From positions 699,648-763,647 of the forward strand of contig CAVRVS010000002.1 in the NCBI GenBank assembly GCA_963724705.1: a DNA stretch of 64,000 bases, in the 5' to 3' direction. The DNA is from an uncultured Actinomycetota bacterium (GTDB taxonomy: Bacteria; Actinomycetota; Actinomycetes; Mycobacteriales; Micromonosporaceae). This document shows, one piece after another, positions 2,319 to 18,851 of this stretch (within the stretch, counting starts at the first letter, position 1; each line of letters begins with the position of its first letter). The notes under the pieces are model-generated. The model searched no databases and was not told the origin of the DNA. It worked only from the letters and a program-made list of their open reading frames with translations. A program made the position numbers and the translations under genes.

Positions 2319-5105
2319 CTATGCGGCGTGCAGCACGTCGGCGACGGCCGTACGCGACGTCACGTCGAGCTTGCGGAGGATGTTCGAGACGTGCACGGCC
2401 GCGGTCTTCGGCGAGATGTAGAGACGGCGCGCGAGTTCCGCATTCGTCAAGCCAGCGGCGACGAGTTGTGCGACCTCGCGTTCGCGCGGGGTGAGTGCCG
2501 CCGGACCGCTGACGGCGTCCTCATCCGGCGCGGGCATGCCCGCTCGTTCCCGCAGCTCGGTCAGCTGTGTGACGCGCCAACCGCCCCACTTCGCGAGCAG
2601 CGGTCCGGCCACGGCGAGCGCCTGCGTCGCTTCGTCCGGCCGGTCAAGCGCGAGCAAACAGGACGCCACGCCTGCGTATGCCGTGCCACGGATCCAGCCC
2701 GGCAGCGCCTCGTGAATGGCAGCGGCCCGATATCCGTCGAGCGCTTTCGAGTGCGCGCCGGCCGCCTCGTCCAACTGGGCGTGCACGAGTTCGTTCCACC
2801 CCGGGTCGGGTGTCTCGCCGAGGCCGGCTTCGGTCAGGGTCCGTACGTCGTCGAGGGGCAGGCCACCGGCCAGTGCCGCCGAGACCACGTCGTGTGTGTA
2901 GTCACCGCCACCTGGGCCGCGCATGGCCATGCCGTCGAGCATGTCCCGCAGCGCCGCCGTCGCCCGTTCGCGGTCGCCGCGACGGCAGGCAACGTGGAAG
3001 ACCAGGCCGGCGATCTGTGAATTGGATGGCAGCGGGATCCCGGAGAGCATCGTCACGATCTCCTCGGCCAGATCCAGGTCACCGTCCTCCAGCGCAAGGC
3101 CGGCCTGGAGGACGGTGTGGTAGTCGGCCTGGCGGCCAGCCTGCCGGAAGCGGTATTCGCGCTTGCGGCCCTCGGCGACCATCGCTCGGGCCGCGGCGAG
3201 ATCACCCTCGCCGACGGCCACCACGGCGAGGCCCTGGTAATAGGCGGCCACCGCGAAATGGTGGAAGCCGGCCTGCTCGGCGTCGGCGCGCATGCGTTCC
3301 AGCAGCTCGGCCTGCTCCCTGATTGACGACGCGGGCAGGTTGAACGCGATGTTGTGCACGGCCCGCGCGGCGAGCACCCAAGCGCCGGCCTTCTCCGCGT
3401 CCGTCGCCGCGCTCAGCAGCATCTCCTGGCCGTCATGGCGACGGGACGTGTGCGAGACGAGCGCGGAGCCCATCTCGGTCAGTGCGGCCAGCCGGGTGAG
3501 CGGCAGCTCGTGCGCGGCGGCCAGATCGAGCGCACGGGCCGACCAGTCCAACGACTTGTCCACCTCGTCCGCGAGCATGTACGACTGAGCCACGGTCGCC
3601 ATCGCCTGACCCATTTGCTCGCCGATCGGCAGCGTGTCGATCATCTGCTCGATCTCCGTGGTGGCGGCACGCATTCCGGCCAGGTCGTCGAGCTCGTACG
3701 TCAGGCGTACCAACAGGACGAGCGCGTCTACCTCGTCGCCCGCGCTCATGGAACGGTCGCGCCATCGTTGCGCATAGCTCAGCGCGTCGCTCAGCAAACC
3801 GGCCAACCAGGCGGCTCGGGCGGCGGCGCTGAGCAGGACCGTATCGTGCGCGGACTGTTCGAGACCGAGTTCGGCCAGCTGTAGCGCCTGATAGACCGAA
3901 CCGATCTGGAGATAGGCGACGCTGCCCGCGCGCGCGGCCGCGACCATGTCGTCATAGCGCCGGGCGCCGTTGGCGTGATAGGCCACGAGAGCCGGTTCGC
4001 CGCCGTCGACCGGGCTGGGCCGCCGGCCACCGCGTTGGGTCGCGCGTCCCGCCACCGCGTCCGCGGCTGCGACGTCTTCGTACCCCTGGAAGCCCAGCGC
4101 GAGCAGTGCGTCGAGTGCGGCCTCGTGCAACCGCCGGCGCTCGCGCCCGAGGAGCGAACCGGTGATCGCCTCGCGAACCAATGCATGCCGGAACACGAAT
4201 TCGTCCTCGCCGGATTCGACGAGAACCCCACGGTCGACGAACTCGCGGAGCGCCCAGATGAGTTCCGACTCGCCCACGCCGGTCACTGTGGCCAAAAGGT
4301 CGAAGGGAATGCGCTGGCCGAGCACGGCAGCGGCCTCGAGGAGTCGCAATTGGGCCGGCTCAAGGTCGTCACTCTGCCGGCGCAGCACCTCGGCGAGGCT
4401 CCACGGCAGCGGCTGGTCGCAGAGCTTCTCCAGGTCATTCGAATCTTGCGCGCGCAGCAGCTCTTCCAGGTAGAACGGGTTGCCGCCGGTGCGCTGGTGC
4501 AGGGCCATCACCGTGCGGTAGGGGGCCGGTCGACCGGTCGCCTGCGACAGTAGTTGCGACGTCTCGTCCGCGGTGAGTCGATCGAGCAAGAGATGGGTGA
4601 CCTCGTGTCGTCGCTCCAGGCGAGCGAGCAGCGCATCGACCGGCTGCCGCCGGGTGACTTCGGCCGGACGGTAGGTGCCGATGAGCAGGCGCGTGCCGTT
4701 CAAGTCGGCGAGATGCTCGAACAACGCGGTGCTCTCCGCATCGGCCCAATGCAGGTCCTCGAACACGATGACGGCCGGGCCGTCGCCAATCAGACCGGCG
4801 ACCAGCGTGAGCGCCGCCCGCTGGCGATCCGCCGGGCTGCGCGATGTGTCACACACCTCGTCGACCAGCGAGCCGTCGGCGGGCAGGTTTGCGATGGCAT
4901 CCAACAACAACTCATATGGCCGGCCGAGTGAGCCCGGTTGCGCGTCGCCCGCAATCACCAGCGCCTGGTCGCCGACCGCGGCGACGAGCTCGTTGATGAG
5001 TCGCGTCTTGCCGATGCCCGGCTCGCCGGCCACGATCGCGACTTGCGGGCGCGACGACGACACGAGCCGCATCAATCGATGCAGCTCGTGGTCGCGCCCG
5101 ATCAT
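2319..5105 (-). CDS. LAL-type (large ATP-binding LuxR family) transcriptional regulator
   Basis: N-terminal Walker [11 protein letters not shown], long helical/TPR-like middle, C-terminal LuxR/GerE HTH ([43 protein letters not shown]). ATG 5105 overlaps the upstream small-ORF stop as TGATG. Alternative start at 5138. Confidence 0.85.
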
Positions 5106-15300: not shown

Positions 15301-15990
15301 TCATGTGGAAGCCGGGCCGGACGCTCTCTGTGGCGTCCCCGACGGCAGCGGAAGCTCCTGTGCCGCGCCCAGCCGTACCATGCTCGCGTGTTCGTGGGCG
15401 AGCAGGCGCAACGCTGCGAACAACGCCTCGCCCAGGACGGTGCCGAGCACGACGAGTTCGAGCATGCGCACCGCTTCGCCGCGCGCGACCACATTGTCGA
15501 CCTCGACCTCGGCCAGGGATAGCGCGCTCGCGGCGTACGTGTCCAGATTGTCCAGCACCTCTGGCGCGTTGACCGTACGGAGCGCGGCAATCACGTCGGC
15601 CAGCTGATCGCGAGCCGGCGCCATCGGCTCGACGAACCAACCGCGCTCGGCCACGTAACGGTCGGCGGCCGCGCGGGCATCCCGCCAGGCGTCGGTGTCG
15701 CGATCGGGGTGCCGGGTCGGCAATACGGCATGGTGAGCGACACCGAGCAGATCATGGGGCTGTAGATCGGTCCGGCTGAGAGCGGCTATCACGTCACGCG
15801 CGGCCGAGATCGATACGCCGCCGACATCCAGCAGCGCACGGATGAGTCGCAGCCGCTGGAGGTGGGCGTCGCCGTAATCAGCCTGATTGGCGGCCCGAGT
15901 CTCGCCCGGTTCGAGTAGACCCTCGCGCAGGTAGTACTTGATCGTCGGTACGGCGACGCCGCTGCGCCTGCTGAGTTCGCCGATGCGCAT
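15301..15990 (-). CDS. MerR family transcriptional regulator
   Basis: MRIGELSRRSGVAVPTIKYYLREGLL is a canonical MerR N-terminal HTH. GGAGG lies 5 nt upstream of ATG 15990. Confidence 0.85.
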   Translation of the reverse strand: MRIGELSRRSGVAVPTIKYYLREGLLEPGETRAANQADYGDAHLQRLRLIRALLDVGGVSISAARDVIAALSRTDLQPHDLLGVAHHAVLPTRHPDRDTDAWRDARAAADRYVAERGWFVEPMAPARDQLADVIAALRTVNAPEVLDNLDTYAASALSLAEVEVDNVVARGEAVRMLELVVLGTVLGEALFAALRLLAHEHASMVRLGAAQELPLPSGTPQRASGPAST

Positions 15991-16133
15991 CCGTGCCTCC
16001 ATCGTCCGGCCGCCGTCGTCCCGCCTCGGCTTGTGCCGCTGCCGCTCATGTCACCGCCGCTGTGCCGCCGCCGCTCGCGCCGTCGTCGCAGCGCCCGATT
16101 CGGCGAATCCCTTGCGCGGATCGCCGACTCGAT

Positions 16134-17260: not shown

Positions 17261-17902
17261 ATGACGCAGGTCGTCGACGAAGAGCGGGCCATCGACGGGT
17301 CGACGGTGACCCTGAGCCGGCTCGATGATGAGGCACGCGCACTACTGTTCACCGAGGCACGCACGGCCAACAGCTTTGCGCCGACGCCGGTCACCGACGA
17401 AGAGCTGACCTCGATCTGGGAGCTCGCGAAGTGGGCGCCGACGGCGGCGAACGTACAGCCGCTCCGGGTTCTCTACGTTCGCCCGGGTGAGGGTCGTGAG
17501 CGCCTGGTCGCCCACATGAGCGAGGGCAATCAGGCGAAGACAGCCAGCGCGCCGGCGGTGGCCGTACTCGCCATGGATACGTCGTTCCACGAGCACATCC
17601 CCACGGTGTTTCCGTTCCGGCCCGAGCTCAAGGACTACTACGCCGCGGACGACGAGTTGCGCGCCGGCTCCGCCCGGACCAACGCGACGTTGCAGGCGGC
17701 GTACTTCATCCTGGCCGTGCGCGCCAACGGGCTGGCGGCGGGACCGATGGGCGGATTCGACCCGGCCGGCATCGACGCCGAGTTCTTCCCGGACGGCCGG
17801 TTCAAGACGATCCTCGTGGTCAACATCGGACATCCAGGCGAGAACCCGTGGTTCGACCGGCTGCCGCGCCTGCCGCACGATGAGGTCGTGTCCTGGGCGT
17901 GA
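17261..17902 (+). CDS. Nitroreductase family protein (RutE / malonic semialdehyde reductase-like)
   Basis: LLFTEARTANSFAPTPVTDEELTSIWELAKWAPTAANVQPLRVLYV is a RutE-like N-terminus. AGGGAGA lies upstream of the ATG. Confidence 0.8.
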   Translation: MTQVVDEERAIDGSTVTLSRLDDEARALLFTEARTANSFAPTPVTDEELTSIWELAKWAPTAANVQPLRVLYVRPGEGRERLVAHMSEGNQAKTASAPAVAVLAMDTSFHEHIPTVFPFRPELKDYYAADDELRAGSARTNATLQAAYFILAVRANGLAAGPMGGFDPAGIDAEFFPDGRFKTILVVNIGHPGENPWFDRLPRLPHDEVVSWA

Positions 17903-17977
17903 CGGTGTAGGCCATCGATCCGGCGGGCATTCGTCGGATCCGGGCGTCGGTCAGCGCATCGTTGACATGTCGGAGGA

Positions 17978-18004
17978 GTGGACGCTGGCGCGCACAGCGT
18001 CCAC
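17978..18004. terminator. 10-bp stem hairpin between convergent genes
   Basis: GTGGACGCTG-gcgcgca-CAGCGTCCAC. Lies 20 nt downstream of the Cys-rich ORF stop (minus) and 76 nt after the nitroreductase stop (plus). Confidence 0.55.
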
Positions 18005-18023
18005 ACCGGTGGTGCGCCAGACG

Positions 18024-18110
18024 TCAGCAGCCGCAGGCGCAGGTGTCGCCGTCGCAGCACTCGTCGCAGCAGCATTCTGGCTGCCATCCTGCCTTCGCGA
18101 TATCGGACAT
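18024..18110 (-). CDS. Cys-rich 28-aa peptide, candidate metallothionein-like metal-binding peptide
   Basis: atg tcc gat atc gcg aag gca gga tgg cag cca gaa tgc tgc tgc gac gag tgc tgc gac ggc gac acc tgc gcc tgc ggc tgc tga = MSDIAKAGWQPECCCDECCDGDTCACGC. SD GGAAAGGAGG lies 8 nt upstream, and a hairpin follows the stop. Same strand as, and downstream of, the metal-type MerR. Confidence 0.6.
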   Translation of the reverse strand: MSDIAKAGWQPECCCDECCDGDTCACGC

Positions 18111-18223
18111 GGTCGTCACCTCCTTTCCGGGCCGGGTTCTCGGGTCGGGTCGGTTCTCGGTCCGGTTCTCCGGCCCGCGGACCCGGGTTCTCGGGTTTTC
18201 GGCTTGGGGTCTCGGCTCCGGCC
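18111..18223 (-). repeat. Array of CCGAGAACC-like 9-mers in the merR-peptide spacer
   Basis: Plus-strand GGTTCTCGG at 18135, 18152 and 18186. Variants at 18164 (GGTTCTCCGG), 18194 (GGTTTTCGG) and 18208 (GGTCTCGG). A 13-nt exact repeat ccgggttctcggg occurs at 18132 and 18183. Confidence 0.6.
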
Positions 18224-18655
18224 TCAGTTGCCGGGCGGACACCACGTGCCAGGCGCCGGCGGTGGACATTCGGCCGACGGCAGTCGCTCGGCCATCCGGA
18301 GCATGTCCGCCCGCAAGGCGGTCAGCCGCACGAGCTCTACGTCGAGTTCGTCCAGCCGCCGCCGGAGCAGGTGCTCGGCCGGCTCGCATGGACAGGTGCC
18401 GGCGTCGCGTACGGCGAGCAGATCCCGTACGTCGCTCAGCGTGAGTCCCAGCCGCTGTGCCCCTTGAATGAACCGCATCCGGTCGATCGCCTCGACGCCG
18501 TACGCCCGGTAGCCCGACGACGTACGCCGCGGCGGCGGCAGGAGCCCGACTCGCTCGTAGTAGCGAATGGTGTCCGGCGCCACGCCGACCTCGTGCGCGA
18601 GTTCGCCGACGCGAAGGGCCGGCCGATTCTGGACTTCCCGAACCGCTAGCGTCAT
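18224..18655 (-). CDS. MerR family heavy-metal-responsive regulator (MerR/ZntR/CadR-like Cys pattern)
   Basis: HTH LRVGELAHEVGVAPDTIRYYERVGLL. Cys88/Cys90 sit at the start of the dimerisation helix, with Cys130-x8-Cys139 in the C-terminal loop. This parallels Tn501 MerR C82...C117-x8-C126. Confidence 0.8.
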   Translation of the reverse strand: MTLAVREVQNRPALRVGELAHEVGVAPDTIRYYERVGLLPPPRRTSSGYRAYGVEAIDRMRFIQGAQRLGLTLSDVRDLLAVRDAGTCPCEPAEHLLRRRLDELDVELVRLTALRADMLRMAERLPSAECPPPAPGTWCPPGN

Positions 18656-18662
18656 GGGGCTG

Positions 18663-18694
18663 ACGCTAAACCTTGGACCCGACTCCAGGGTCAA
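18663..18694 (-). promoter_or_regulatory. MerR-type promoter: TTGACC - 20-bp spacer with dyad - TAGCGT, leaderless start
   Basis: Minus strand reads TTGACC ctggagtcgggtccaaggtt TAGCGT cagcccc ATG. The spacer contains the dyad ACCTTGGA-N6-TCCAGGGT (7/8). The -10 lies 7 nt before the merR ATG. Confidence 0.5.
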
Positions 18695-18851
18695 GCCCGG
18701 CACGTGCGAGCGTGACGAAACATCGACGATCATGTTTCGAGTTGACCAAAAGTGGCGGGCGTGTGACCGTGCGCTGACGGTCGCTCCGGTTTGTACGGAA
18801 CTTTGTCTGAACCCCTTTTCTGCCTGGTCGGATACCGTTAGGTTGCACGTC

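Follow-up and report, generated by a model that had tools for sequence, protein, structure and literature searches.

On the minus strand of a 64,000-nucleotide (nt) stretch of DNA from an uncultured Actinomycetota bacterium of the family Micromonosporaceae (GenBank assembly GCA_963724705.1, contig CAVRVS010000002.1, positions 699,648 to 763,647; hereafter the window), a gene for a MerR-family sensor of the heavy-metal type is followed by a very short open reading frame (ORF) that encodes a Cys-rich peptide. An initial annotation, made from the letters of this DNA, had proposed the short ORF as a hidden gene and as part of an undescribed mini-metallothionein module. Here we describe the locus and its relatives and weigh what the peptide might do. 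The features of the locus, from the promoter of the sensor gene to a hairpin behind the peptide, are collected in Table 1.

Table 1. Features of the sensor-peptide locus, in the direction of transcription (window coordinates; SD, Shine-Dalgarno sequence).
Feature	Position	Strand	Description
MerR-type promoter/operator	18663..18694	-	-35 TTGACC at 18694-18689, 20-bp spacer, -10 TAGCGT at 18668-18663
Leaderless gene for a 143-residue MerR-family heavy-metal-type sensor	18224..18655	-	Motifs CPCEPAE and CPxxxPGxWCPP; Pfam matches
Intergenic spacer, 113 nt	18111..18223	-	Loose GAGAACC-type repeats; 3' end is the extended SD GGAAAGGAGGTGA (18128-18116)
Gene for a 28-residue, 8-Cys acidic peptide	18024..18110	-	Has counterparts in about 90 loci, following the orthologous regulator
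Hairpin after the peptide stop	17978..18004	-	10-bp stem GTGGACGCTG/CAGCGTCCAC, 7-nt loop TGCGCGC (palindromic GC hexamer)

The peptide ORF runs from an ATG at 18110 to a TGA at 18026-18024, and its product is MSDIAKAGWQPECCCDECCDGDTCACGC, with 8 Cys among 28 residues. As the initial annotation had stated, a program-made ORF list shows it merely as the tail of ORF 18024..18389, and re-reading the sequence agrees with this and with the number of Cys residues. The near-consensus Shine-Dalgarno sequence (SD) claimed 8 nt 5' of the ATG was found at 18128-18119 (GGAAAGGAGG), and a longer stretch around it, AAAGGAGGTGA, is one that we take to be complementary to the 3' tail of 16S rRNA. Third codon positions in the Cys-rich part, described as mostly G or C, are G or C in all 16 codons counted. 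The density of 8 Cys per 16 residues is the highest in the six frames of the window; the runner-up, an Arg/Ser-rich stretch in another frame, has 6 per 16. The regulator reported 113 nt upstream on the same strand has its coding sequence at 18655..18224. A spacer of this size (104-113 nt between regulator and peptide) is limited to the window and to the related loci L001 and L002, and the two genes overlap or abut elsewhere. The spacer of the window (18111-18223) contains loose GAGAACC(G) repeats, and the program TRF reports a repeat of period 8 (2.4 copies) at 18184-18202.

Relatives of this locus, designated by L numbers, were gathered with the regulator as query from a genome collection holding one genome per species, where L001-L017 are the closest among the matches listed, and from metagenomes with a profile built from 16 regulators, which gave 80 loci among the matches listed. 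The ORF is conserved in relatives that keep the MerR gene: a Cys-rich ORF of 11-31 codons lies directly 3' of the regulator in all 15 actinobacterial loci among L001-L017 (regulator identity 48-94%), and one lies behind the regulator in 72 of the 74 metagenome loci whose sequence reaches far enough downstream. At least 90 loci of soil actinobacteria retain the two-gene unit of sensor and peptide. The taxonomic range drawn from the genome and metagenome collections is a lower bound, and enterobacterial zntR genes make up most of the genome matches listed. Among the genome loci, L004 belongs to an isolate, Haloechinothrix halophila YIM 93223. Two further records come from cultured carriers, the conjugative plasmid pGA1 of Rhodococcus sp. 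GA1 (peptide MHDCCEDPMCPPELCGCGC) and the chromosome of Geodermatophilus sp. URMC 65, a complete genome (peptide LELTCTCDPDCCDETCDCDC, preceded by a GTG start). In the latter record, CP199954.1, the module lies at about 3,136,2xx-3,136,75x. The gene tables of these two records have no gene entered where the peptide lies.

Among the genome matches outside the actinobacterial clade the pairing was not found. The Gemmatimonadota loci L015 and L017 have no Cys-rich ORF, and the C-terminus of their regulator and their operator differ. None of the ZntR-like loci outside the clade (L018-L080) has at least 6 Cys per 16 residues right behind the regulator. The two metagenome loci without the ORF carry what is left of a module. 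L117 (1439-2100) holds a decayed one with neither the operator palindrome nor the Cys ORF. In L118 (265-1005) the promoter and the SD are intact and the first 11 codons of a typical peptide remain (MLELRCDCDPD), after which the frame is lost. This frameshifted remnant may reflect either a pseudogene or a fault in the assembly.

The peptide ORFs carry strong signals for translation. GGAGG, mostly as GGAGGTGA, stands 3-11 nt 5' of the peptide start in 87 of 88 loci; for some peptides the start codon (GTG versus a nearby ATG) was picked by its spacing from the SD. The peptide start overlaps the stop codon of the regulator in 47 loci and lies at most 30 nt from it in another 37. The TGA within GGAGGTGA often doubles as the regulator stop, for example in L082, L083, L088, L098 and L105, where the stop is 5 nt 5' of the ATG.

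The 85 unique peptides average 21 residues (range 11-31) and 34% Cys, which rises to 55% in the richest of them. From the first Cys onward, the core consists of C (44%), D (16%), G (12%), P (7%) and E (6%), while R, K and H account for at most 0.3% each, against 12.9% Arg in the neighboring regulators, and aromatic residues for about 0.6% in total. Successive Cys are chiefly separated by 0 or 1 residue and next by 3 or 4. Members include the 11-mer MTCCECGCCCG and the 20-mer MCPCCDDPSCDGSCCEEGCC, and the peptide of L009 holds an alternating acidic/Cys run, CECDCDCDCC. In roughly half of the peptides, a short Cys-free N-terminal part precedes the Cys-rich core, and many others open with MC... 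and have 11-17 residues. As a control, 53 SD-led short ORFs from the same loci contain 1.9% Cys on average and none of them has 4 Cys or more.

Substitutions between relatives point in the same direction. Across 38 close pairs, Cys codons show 21 synonymous versus 19 non-synonymous changes and other codons 79 versus 116, a trend rather than a test statistic given that the pairs are non-independent. Since, of the 9 single-base changes that a Cys codon can undergo, just 1 is synonymous, the ratio of 21:19 indicates that the Cys codons are protected. Between the window and L001, the Cys-rich half of the peptide is identical at the protein level with synonymous changes in the DNA, whereas the N-terminal half has diverged. 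Comparison of the sequences thus indicates that the peptide gene is selected at the level of the peptide, with its Cys residues protected. The claim of a hidden but real gene holds up well, as the frame is kept in about 90 loci together with a strong SD, a start codon and protected Cys codons, and we have little doubt that the ORF is a genuine gene co-expressed with the sensor.

The sensor of the window has the helix-turn-helix (HTH) and dimerization domains of its family, and its Pfam matches (MerR_1, E = 4.6e-20; MerR; MerR-DNA-bind) all lie above the gathering cut-offs. Against the NCBIfam models for MerR, ZntR, CadR/PbrR and CueR its best scores are 91, 89, 84, 82 and 69 bits, compared with cut-offs of 143-168. 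The sensor therefore falls below the cut-offs of all four named equivalogs and represents a separate subfamily, for which the NCBI name is "heavy metal-responsive transcriptional regulator" and nothing more specific. At E <= 1e-30, no fewer than 3639 clusters of the protein collection belong to this subfamily, and most of them are metagenomic. The best solved relatives are Bacillus MerR, Pseudomonas putida CadR, Tn501 MerR and PbrR, and TipA is also among the matches. All four Cys residues that had been singled out in the regulator (C88/C90 and C130-x8-C139) are present; in the alignment C88, C90 and W138 are invariant and C130 and C139 (C-x8-C) nearly so. C90 aligns with the metal-ligand Cys of solved MerR and CadR structures (C79/C77/C82). 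A Cys at the C79 position, at the start of the dimerization helix, marks sensors of +2 ions in the MerR family. A site with four thiolates would suit Zn or Cd; the metal sensed is most likely of the Zn/Cd/Pb type and less likely Hg.

The promoter of the sensor gene likewise has the architecture of the family. The MerR-style promoter that the initial annotation had assigned to the regulator was found at 18694-18663, and its operator palindrome, ACCCTGGAGT-CG-GGTCCAAGGT, occupies 18691-18670. The motif occurs once in the window, where 0.07 occurrences are expected, and no second copy was found there. Among the 78 loci having full upstream sequence, 75 show TTGACC-N20-TAnnnT with the spacer palindrome ACCTTGGAGT..ACTCCAAGGT. 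For comparison we used the E. coli zntA promoter, whose sequence was verified in E. coli genomes: 5414 of 5426 contain it at 100% identity, 35 nt upstream of zntA. The promoter of L005 is identical to it at 26 of 33 positions and shares the same architecture. The ATG or GTG of the regulator follows the -10 hexamer by 6-8 nt in 75 of 80 loci, which implies a leaderless mRNA. A scan of the window region for consensus promoters and terminators found nothing, as expected from a spacer of 20 bp and a hairpin without a U-tract.

Further evidence for a link to metals comes from sister regulators with 57-59% identity on Mycobacterium abscessus plasmid pGD22-1 (L163, 372-2935) and on plasmid pFRL4 of Streptomyces sp. 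F2 (L164, 308-2899). They carry a CPCEPAA motif, and the second Cys of the loop is replaced by Arg. Both loci contain the same palindrome, oriented as the promoter of a divergent P1B ATPase, for which the Cd-family model scores best among the specific P1B subfamily models; neither has a Cys-rich ORF downstream of the sister regulator. As these regulators face a P1B ATPase, relatives of the sensor would control heavy-metal export, while the clade studied here would control itself and the peptide. The connection to a metal-type MerR drawn in the initial annotation is thus upheld by the alignment of C90, by the 20-bp spacer with its ZntR-like palindrome and by sister regulators that drive Cd-family P1B ATPases.

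Apart from the regulator, no gene is shared across the roughly 90 loci, and no conserved maturase, protease, transporter or Cys-metabolism gene was found among the neighbors. The next downstream gene differs between loci, both in what it encodes and in its orientation, and is often convergent; in the window it is a convergent gene of the nitroreductase family. An ArsR/SmtB (CmtR-like) regulator adjoins the module in 6 loci (L091, L106, L130, L143 and L155 listed), an ArsI/CadI enzyme in L016 (3503-3898), and a weak cation diffusion facilitator-like match, below the model cut-off, in L009 (3574-4586). In 3 loci (L008, L116 and L157) a flavoprotein disulfide reductase, which resembles lipoamide dehydrogenase and MerA below the cut-offs, is divergent from the module. 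In L005, a metagenome-assembled genome of the Propionibacteriales, the module from promoter to peptide stop lies between direct copies of an 84-nt element (2861-2944 and 3452-3535), which are 83% identical and each contain a hairpin with arms of 23-25 bp. In appearance the element resembles palindromic repeats or miniature mobile elements. The window itself contains a second MerR-family ORF at 15301-16002 on the minus strand (233 residues, HTH MEARMRIGELSRRSGVAVPTIKYYLREGLL), 2.2 kb from the module and without a Cys-rich partner. This ORF joined the MerR cluster in an all-against-all BLAST.

The 10-bp hairpin noted behind the peptide stop in the initial annotation was confirmed; its stem begins 19 nt past the stop and is present in both the minimum free energy and the centroid folds. 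A hairpin lies 8-35 nt past the peptide stop in the window, L007-L013, L082-L092, L140-L158 and others, and in about one third of the loci its loop is a palindromic GC hexamer (GGCGCC or GCGCGC) plus 1-4 bases. Up to 60 nt from the peptide stop, 31 hairpins with such loops were counted, compared with 33 in 523 kb elsewhere in the loci, an enrichment of about 90-fold. The stems differ and covary, with compensatory changes in 6 of the 10 stem pairs of one subclass; this count was restricted to the class with a 10-nt loop, as MAFFT put two types with a 7-nt loop out of structural register. The hairpin has no U-tract, and Rfam searches of 17850-18800 gave matches at chance level only. It is presumed to be a terminator or 3'-end structure of the bicistronic mRNA, and the loop possibly serves in loop-loop pairing of transcripts or as a protein-binding site.

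The peptides are essentially invisible to annotation, as gene callers almost never call their ORFs. The window peptide matches no family in Pfam or NCBIfam. An exact look-up in a collection of 15 billion predicted proteins found 10 of 11 peptides absent (the window peptide and 9 of 10 relatives); the single peptide present is an unnamed member of 27 residues. A padded peptide profile run against 5.8 billion proteins gave no hit at E <= 1 among 478 candidates sharing words with it, the profile being too short and of too low complexity for such a search. The literature search found no description of a sensor-peptide module, although its coverage of subscription papers is incomplete and a prior description is therefore possible, and the first 300,000 characters of a 2024 review of bacterial metal homeostasis contain nothing like the module. 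Hence, the module can still be called undescribed: the peptide belongs to no Pfam or NCBIfam family, nearly all the peptides looked up are missing from the large collection, and no description was found.

Taken together, we consider it rather probable that the two genes form an operon of a "sense-and-sequester" type that is induced by metal, and that the peptide chelates soft divalent metals in the manner of a very small metallothionein or phytochelatin. In such an operon, the ZntR/MerR/CadR-like regulator would sit on the palindrome inside the promoter, where the -35 and -10 elements are 20 bp apart. A spacer of this length is too long, so the promoter would be poor unless it is reshaped. A soft divalent metal would bind to a thiolate site made of C88/C90 of one subunit and C130/C139 of the other, upon which the promoter would be reshaped. 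Promoter reshaping by the metal-bound regulator is an established mechanism of the MerR family. The resulting two-gene mRNA would be leaderless and the regulator translated from its 5'-terminal start codon, while the second cistron would rely on an SD that matches the tail of 16S rRNA over 11-12 nt and is coupled to the regulator stop in most relatives. As this SD is very strong and often coupled to the stop of a regulator gene that is itself leaderless, the peptide is probably made in excess over the regulator. The acidic poly-Cys peptide might then wrap metal ions in thiolate clusters, lower the free metal and thereby allow the sensor to switch off again in a negative feedback; the hairpin would end the transcript. 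Whether the case extends beyond this operon is, in our judgment, evenly balanced: the peptides may represent a widespread family of ribosomally made metal chelators of 11-31 residues, a counterpart of the phytochelatins, each tied to its own sensor in a leaderless, autoactivated cassette that moves among soil Actinomycetota, also on conjugative plasmids.

Several observations weigh against a sequestering peptide. A search of 42 peptides with Pfam and NCBIfam gave no metallothionein match, and the peptides are strongly acidic and free of Lys, unlike animal metallothioneins, and lack His, unlike bacterial SmtA. Peptides of 11 residues may be unstable or need to oligomerize. Positive autoregulation of a MerR protein from its own MerR-type promoter is unusual, and the conserved palindromic loop of the hairpin is left unexplained by the operon model. 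In a single case, Geodermatophilus sp. URMC 65, a multicopper oxidase lies 1.9 kb downstream on the same strand (L165, 4842-5441), a weak hint that Cu is also possible as the metal.

Other roles can be envisaged for the peptide. It might work together with the sensor as a metallochaperone or reset factor, which gives metal to the regulator, strips metal from it or passes the metal to an exporter elsewhere, and would in this way tune sensitivity and shut-off, loosely like MerD for MerR. The strict 1:1 coupling of sensor and peptide, which is often translational, is compatible with such a partnership, as is the absence of an exporter conserved in cis, and some MerR-family sensors carry Cys/His-rich C-terminal tails of which the peptide may be viewed as a detached version. 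The strong SD beside a leaderless regulator, however, points to a peptide in large excess over the sensor, as would suit a buffer more than a stoichiometric partner. Moreover, the peptide sequences diverge greatly while the regulators are 55-70% identical, which makes a specific protein-protein interface unlikely. We therefore regard a sensor partner as improbable. Less probable again, the peptide might protect against electrophiles, oxidants or nitrosative stress as a sacrificial thiol sink or a redox buffer, with regulator Cys residues that sense the stress and not a metal. MerR-family NmlR/AdhR and SoxR sense such stresses, the sensor has weak NCBIfam matches to NmlR and SoxR, and the divergent disulfide reductase might belong to such a response. 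Yet this enzyme is found in just 3 of about 90 loci, and the Cys pattern of the sensor aligns with metal-binding MerRs, whereas NmlR has a single Cys and SoxR the pattern CX2CXCX5C. The operator, moreover, is of the ZntR kind, and the sister regulators are paired with P1B ATPases.

The remaining readings take the ORF out of metal handling. Ribosomes pausing at its Cys codons when cysteine is low could alter the structure or stability of the mRNA, with the peptide itself functionless; polycysteine short ORFs acting in this manner are documented in actinobacteria (10.1101/834739), and in many loci the stop codon comes 8-30 nt before the conserved hairpin. ORFs of the window type are SD-led second cistrons, not leaderless first ORFs, the downstream gene is unrelated between loci and often convergent, and the composition apart from Cys is constrained (D/E/G/P with almost no R/K/L/V), which pausing alone would not need. 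We consider an attenuator very unlikely, and the same holds for a precursor of a modified or exported product, be it a ribosomally synthesized and post-translationally modified peptide (RiPP), a thiol-rich metallophore or a peptide signal to the adjacent regulator. Roughly half of the peptides are loosely leader/core-like, and 1 of the 42 members matches a radical S-adenosylmethionine-modified Cys-rich RiPP family very weakly (E = 0.28), but no maturase, protease or transporter is conserved in the roughly 90 loci, no signal peptide was found, and many members open with MC... and consist of only 11-17 residues. Of the functions left open in the initial annotation (metal buffer, metallochaperone or thiol-rich RiPP-like precursor), the RiPP precursor is thus disfavored, there being no conserved maturase or other neighbor. 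Both RiPP and attenuator were rejected as leading readings on the ground that no maturase, transporter or Cys-metabolism neighbor is conserved. Finally, TGC-rich off-frames do arise in GC-rich genomes, and in the window a longer, spurious ORF has the peptide ORF as its end; nevertheless, a chance frame or a by-product of a conserved nucleic-acid element is hardly conceivable, as frame, start, stop and SD are kept in about 90 loci despite differing DNA, the changes include synonymous ones and the control ORFs are nearly free of Cys.

If the peptides bind metal, as the sense-and-sequester operon predicts, soil actinobacteria would have a common and previously unseen route of metal handling. To our knowledge, the cytosolic metal-buffering proteins of bacteria are few (SmtA/BmtA, MymT and Csp), and we know of none reported as a MerR-coupled peptide in Actinomycetota. 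The peptides also mark a blind spot of annotation, being nearly absent from a protein collection in which the regulator subfamily has thousands of members. The unit is minimal, with one promoter, one sensor and one peptide, and cultured hosts as well as a plasmid copy exist. Possible uses include the promoter-sensor pair as a biosensor and the peptides as natural versions of the (Glu-Cys)n chelators used in bioremediation work.

Compared with known systems, the module would be new, while its kind, a metal sensor with a Cys-rich product that binds the metal, would be a known one. The sensor shares with ZntR, CadR, PbrR and MerR the HTH, the dimerization helix, the Cys for divalent metals, the C-x8-C loop and the palindromic promoter with a 20-bp spacer. 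It differs from them in the extra invariant Cys (CPC) and the W-C-P-P motif and in that it drives its own leaderless gene and a peptide in place of an efflux pump or mer genes. TipAL/TipAS of Streptomyces is a known case of a MerR-type gene that activates itself and from which a ligand-binding protein is additionally made in excess. The proposed logic is alike, with a sensor acting at its own MerR-type promoter and an abundant product that binds the inducer; TipAS, however, consists of the sensor's own C-terminal domain, translated from an internal start, and binds thiopeptide antibiotics and not metals.

The peptides satisfy the compositional definition of a metallothionein in size, Cys content, motifs and scarcity of aromatic residues, and share with SmtA/BmtA, MymT and the fungal Cu type the small size, the richness in Cys, the CC/CxC/CxxC spacing, the few aromatic residues and the tie to a metal sensor. 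They match none of these families and differ in their length of 11-31 residues, in being acidic and essentially without Lys or His, and in having a MerR-type activator in the same operon; SmtA is under the control of ArsR/SmtB and MymT under CsoR/RicR. The smallest metallothioneins that we know of are fungal, with 25-26 residues (e.g., Neurospora crassa), and the peptides are as short or shorter. In being acidic rather than basic, their make-up resembles that of phytochelatins and synthetic (Glu-Cys)n peptides, which are also short with alternating acidic and Cys residues. Phytochelatins are made enzymatically from glutathione and have gamma-linkages, whereas the peptides described here are ribosomally encoded; such peptides are expected to bind Cd, Hg, Pb and Zn.

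The mycobacterial polycysteine short ORFs are leaderless, stand first in the operon upstream of cysteine-metabolism genes and act as Cys-responsive attenuators (10.1101/834739). They have in common with the peptide ORFs that they are unannotated poly-Cys short ORFs in actinobacterial operons; the peptide ORFs differ in being SD-led and second, after a metal sensor, and in being followed by a hairpin and unrelated genes. In Pseudomonas aeruginosa, the MerR-family Zn/Cd sensor CadR activates Zrd, an unannotated small Cys-rich protein for which metal sequestration has been proposed (PMC12301328). Zrd is much larger, with two zinc ribbons and mononuclear Cys4 sites, is unrelated in sequence and is encoded at a separate locus of a proteobacterium, and it is the nearest published parallel to the sensor-peptide pair.

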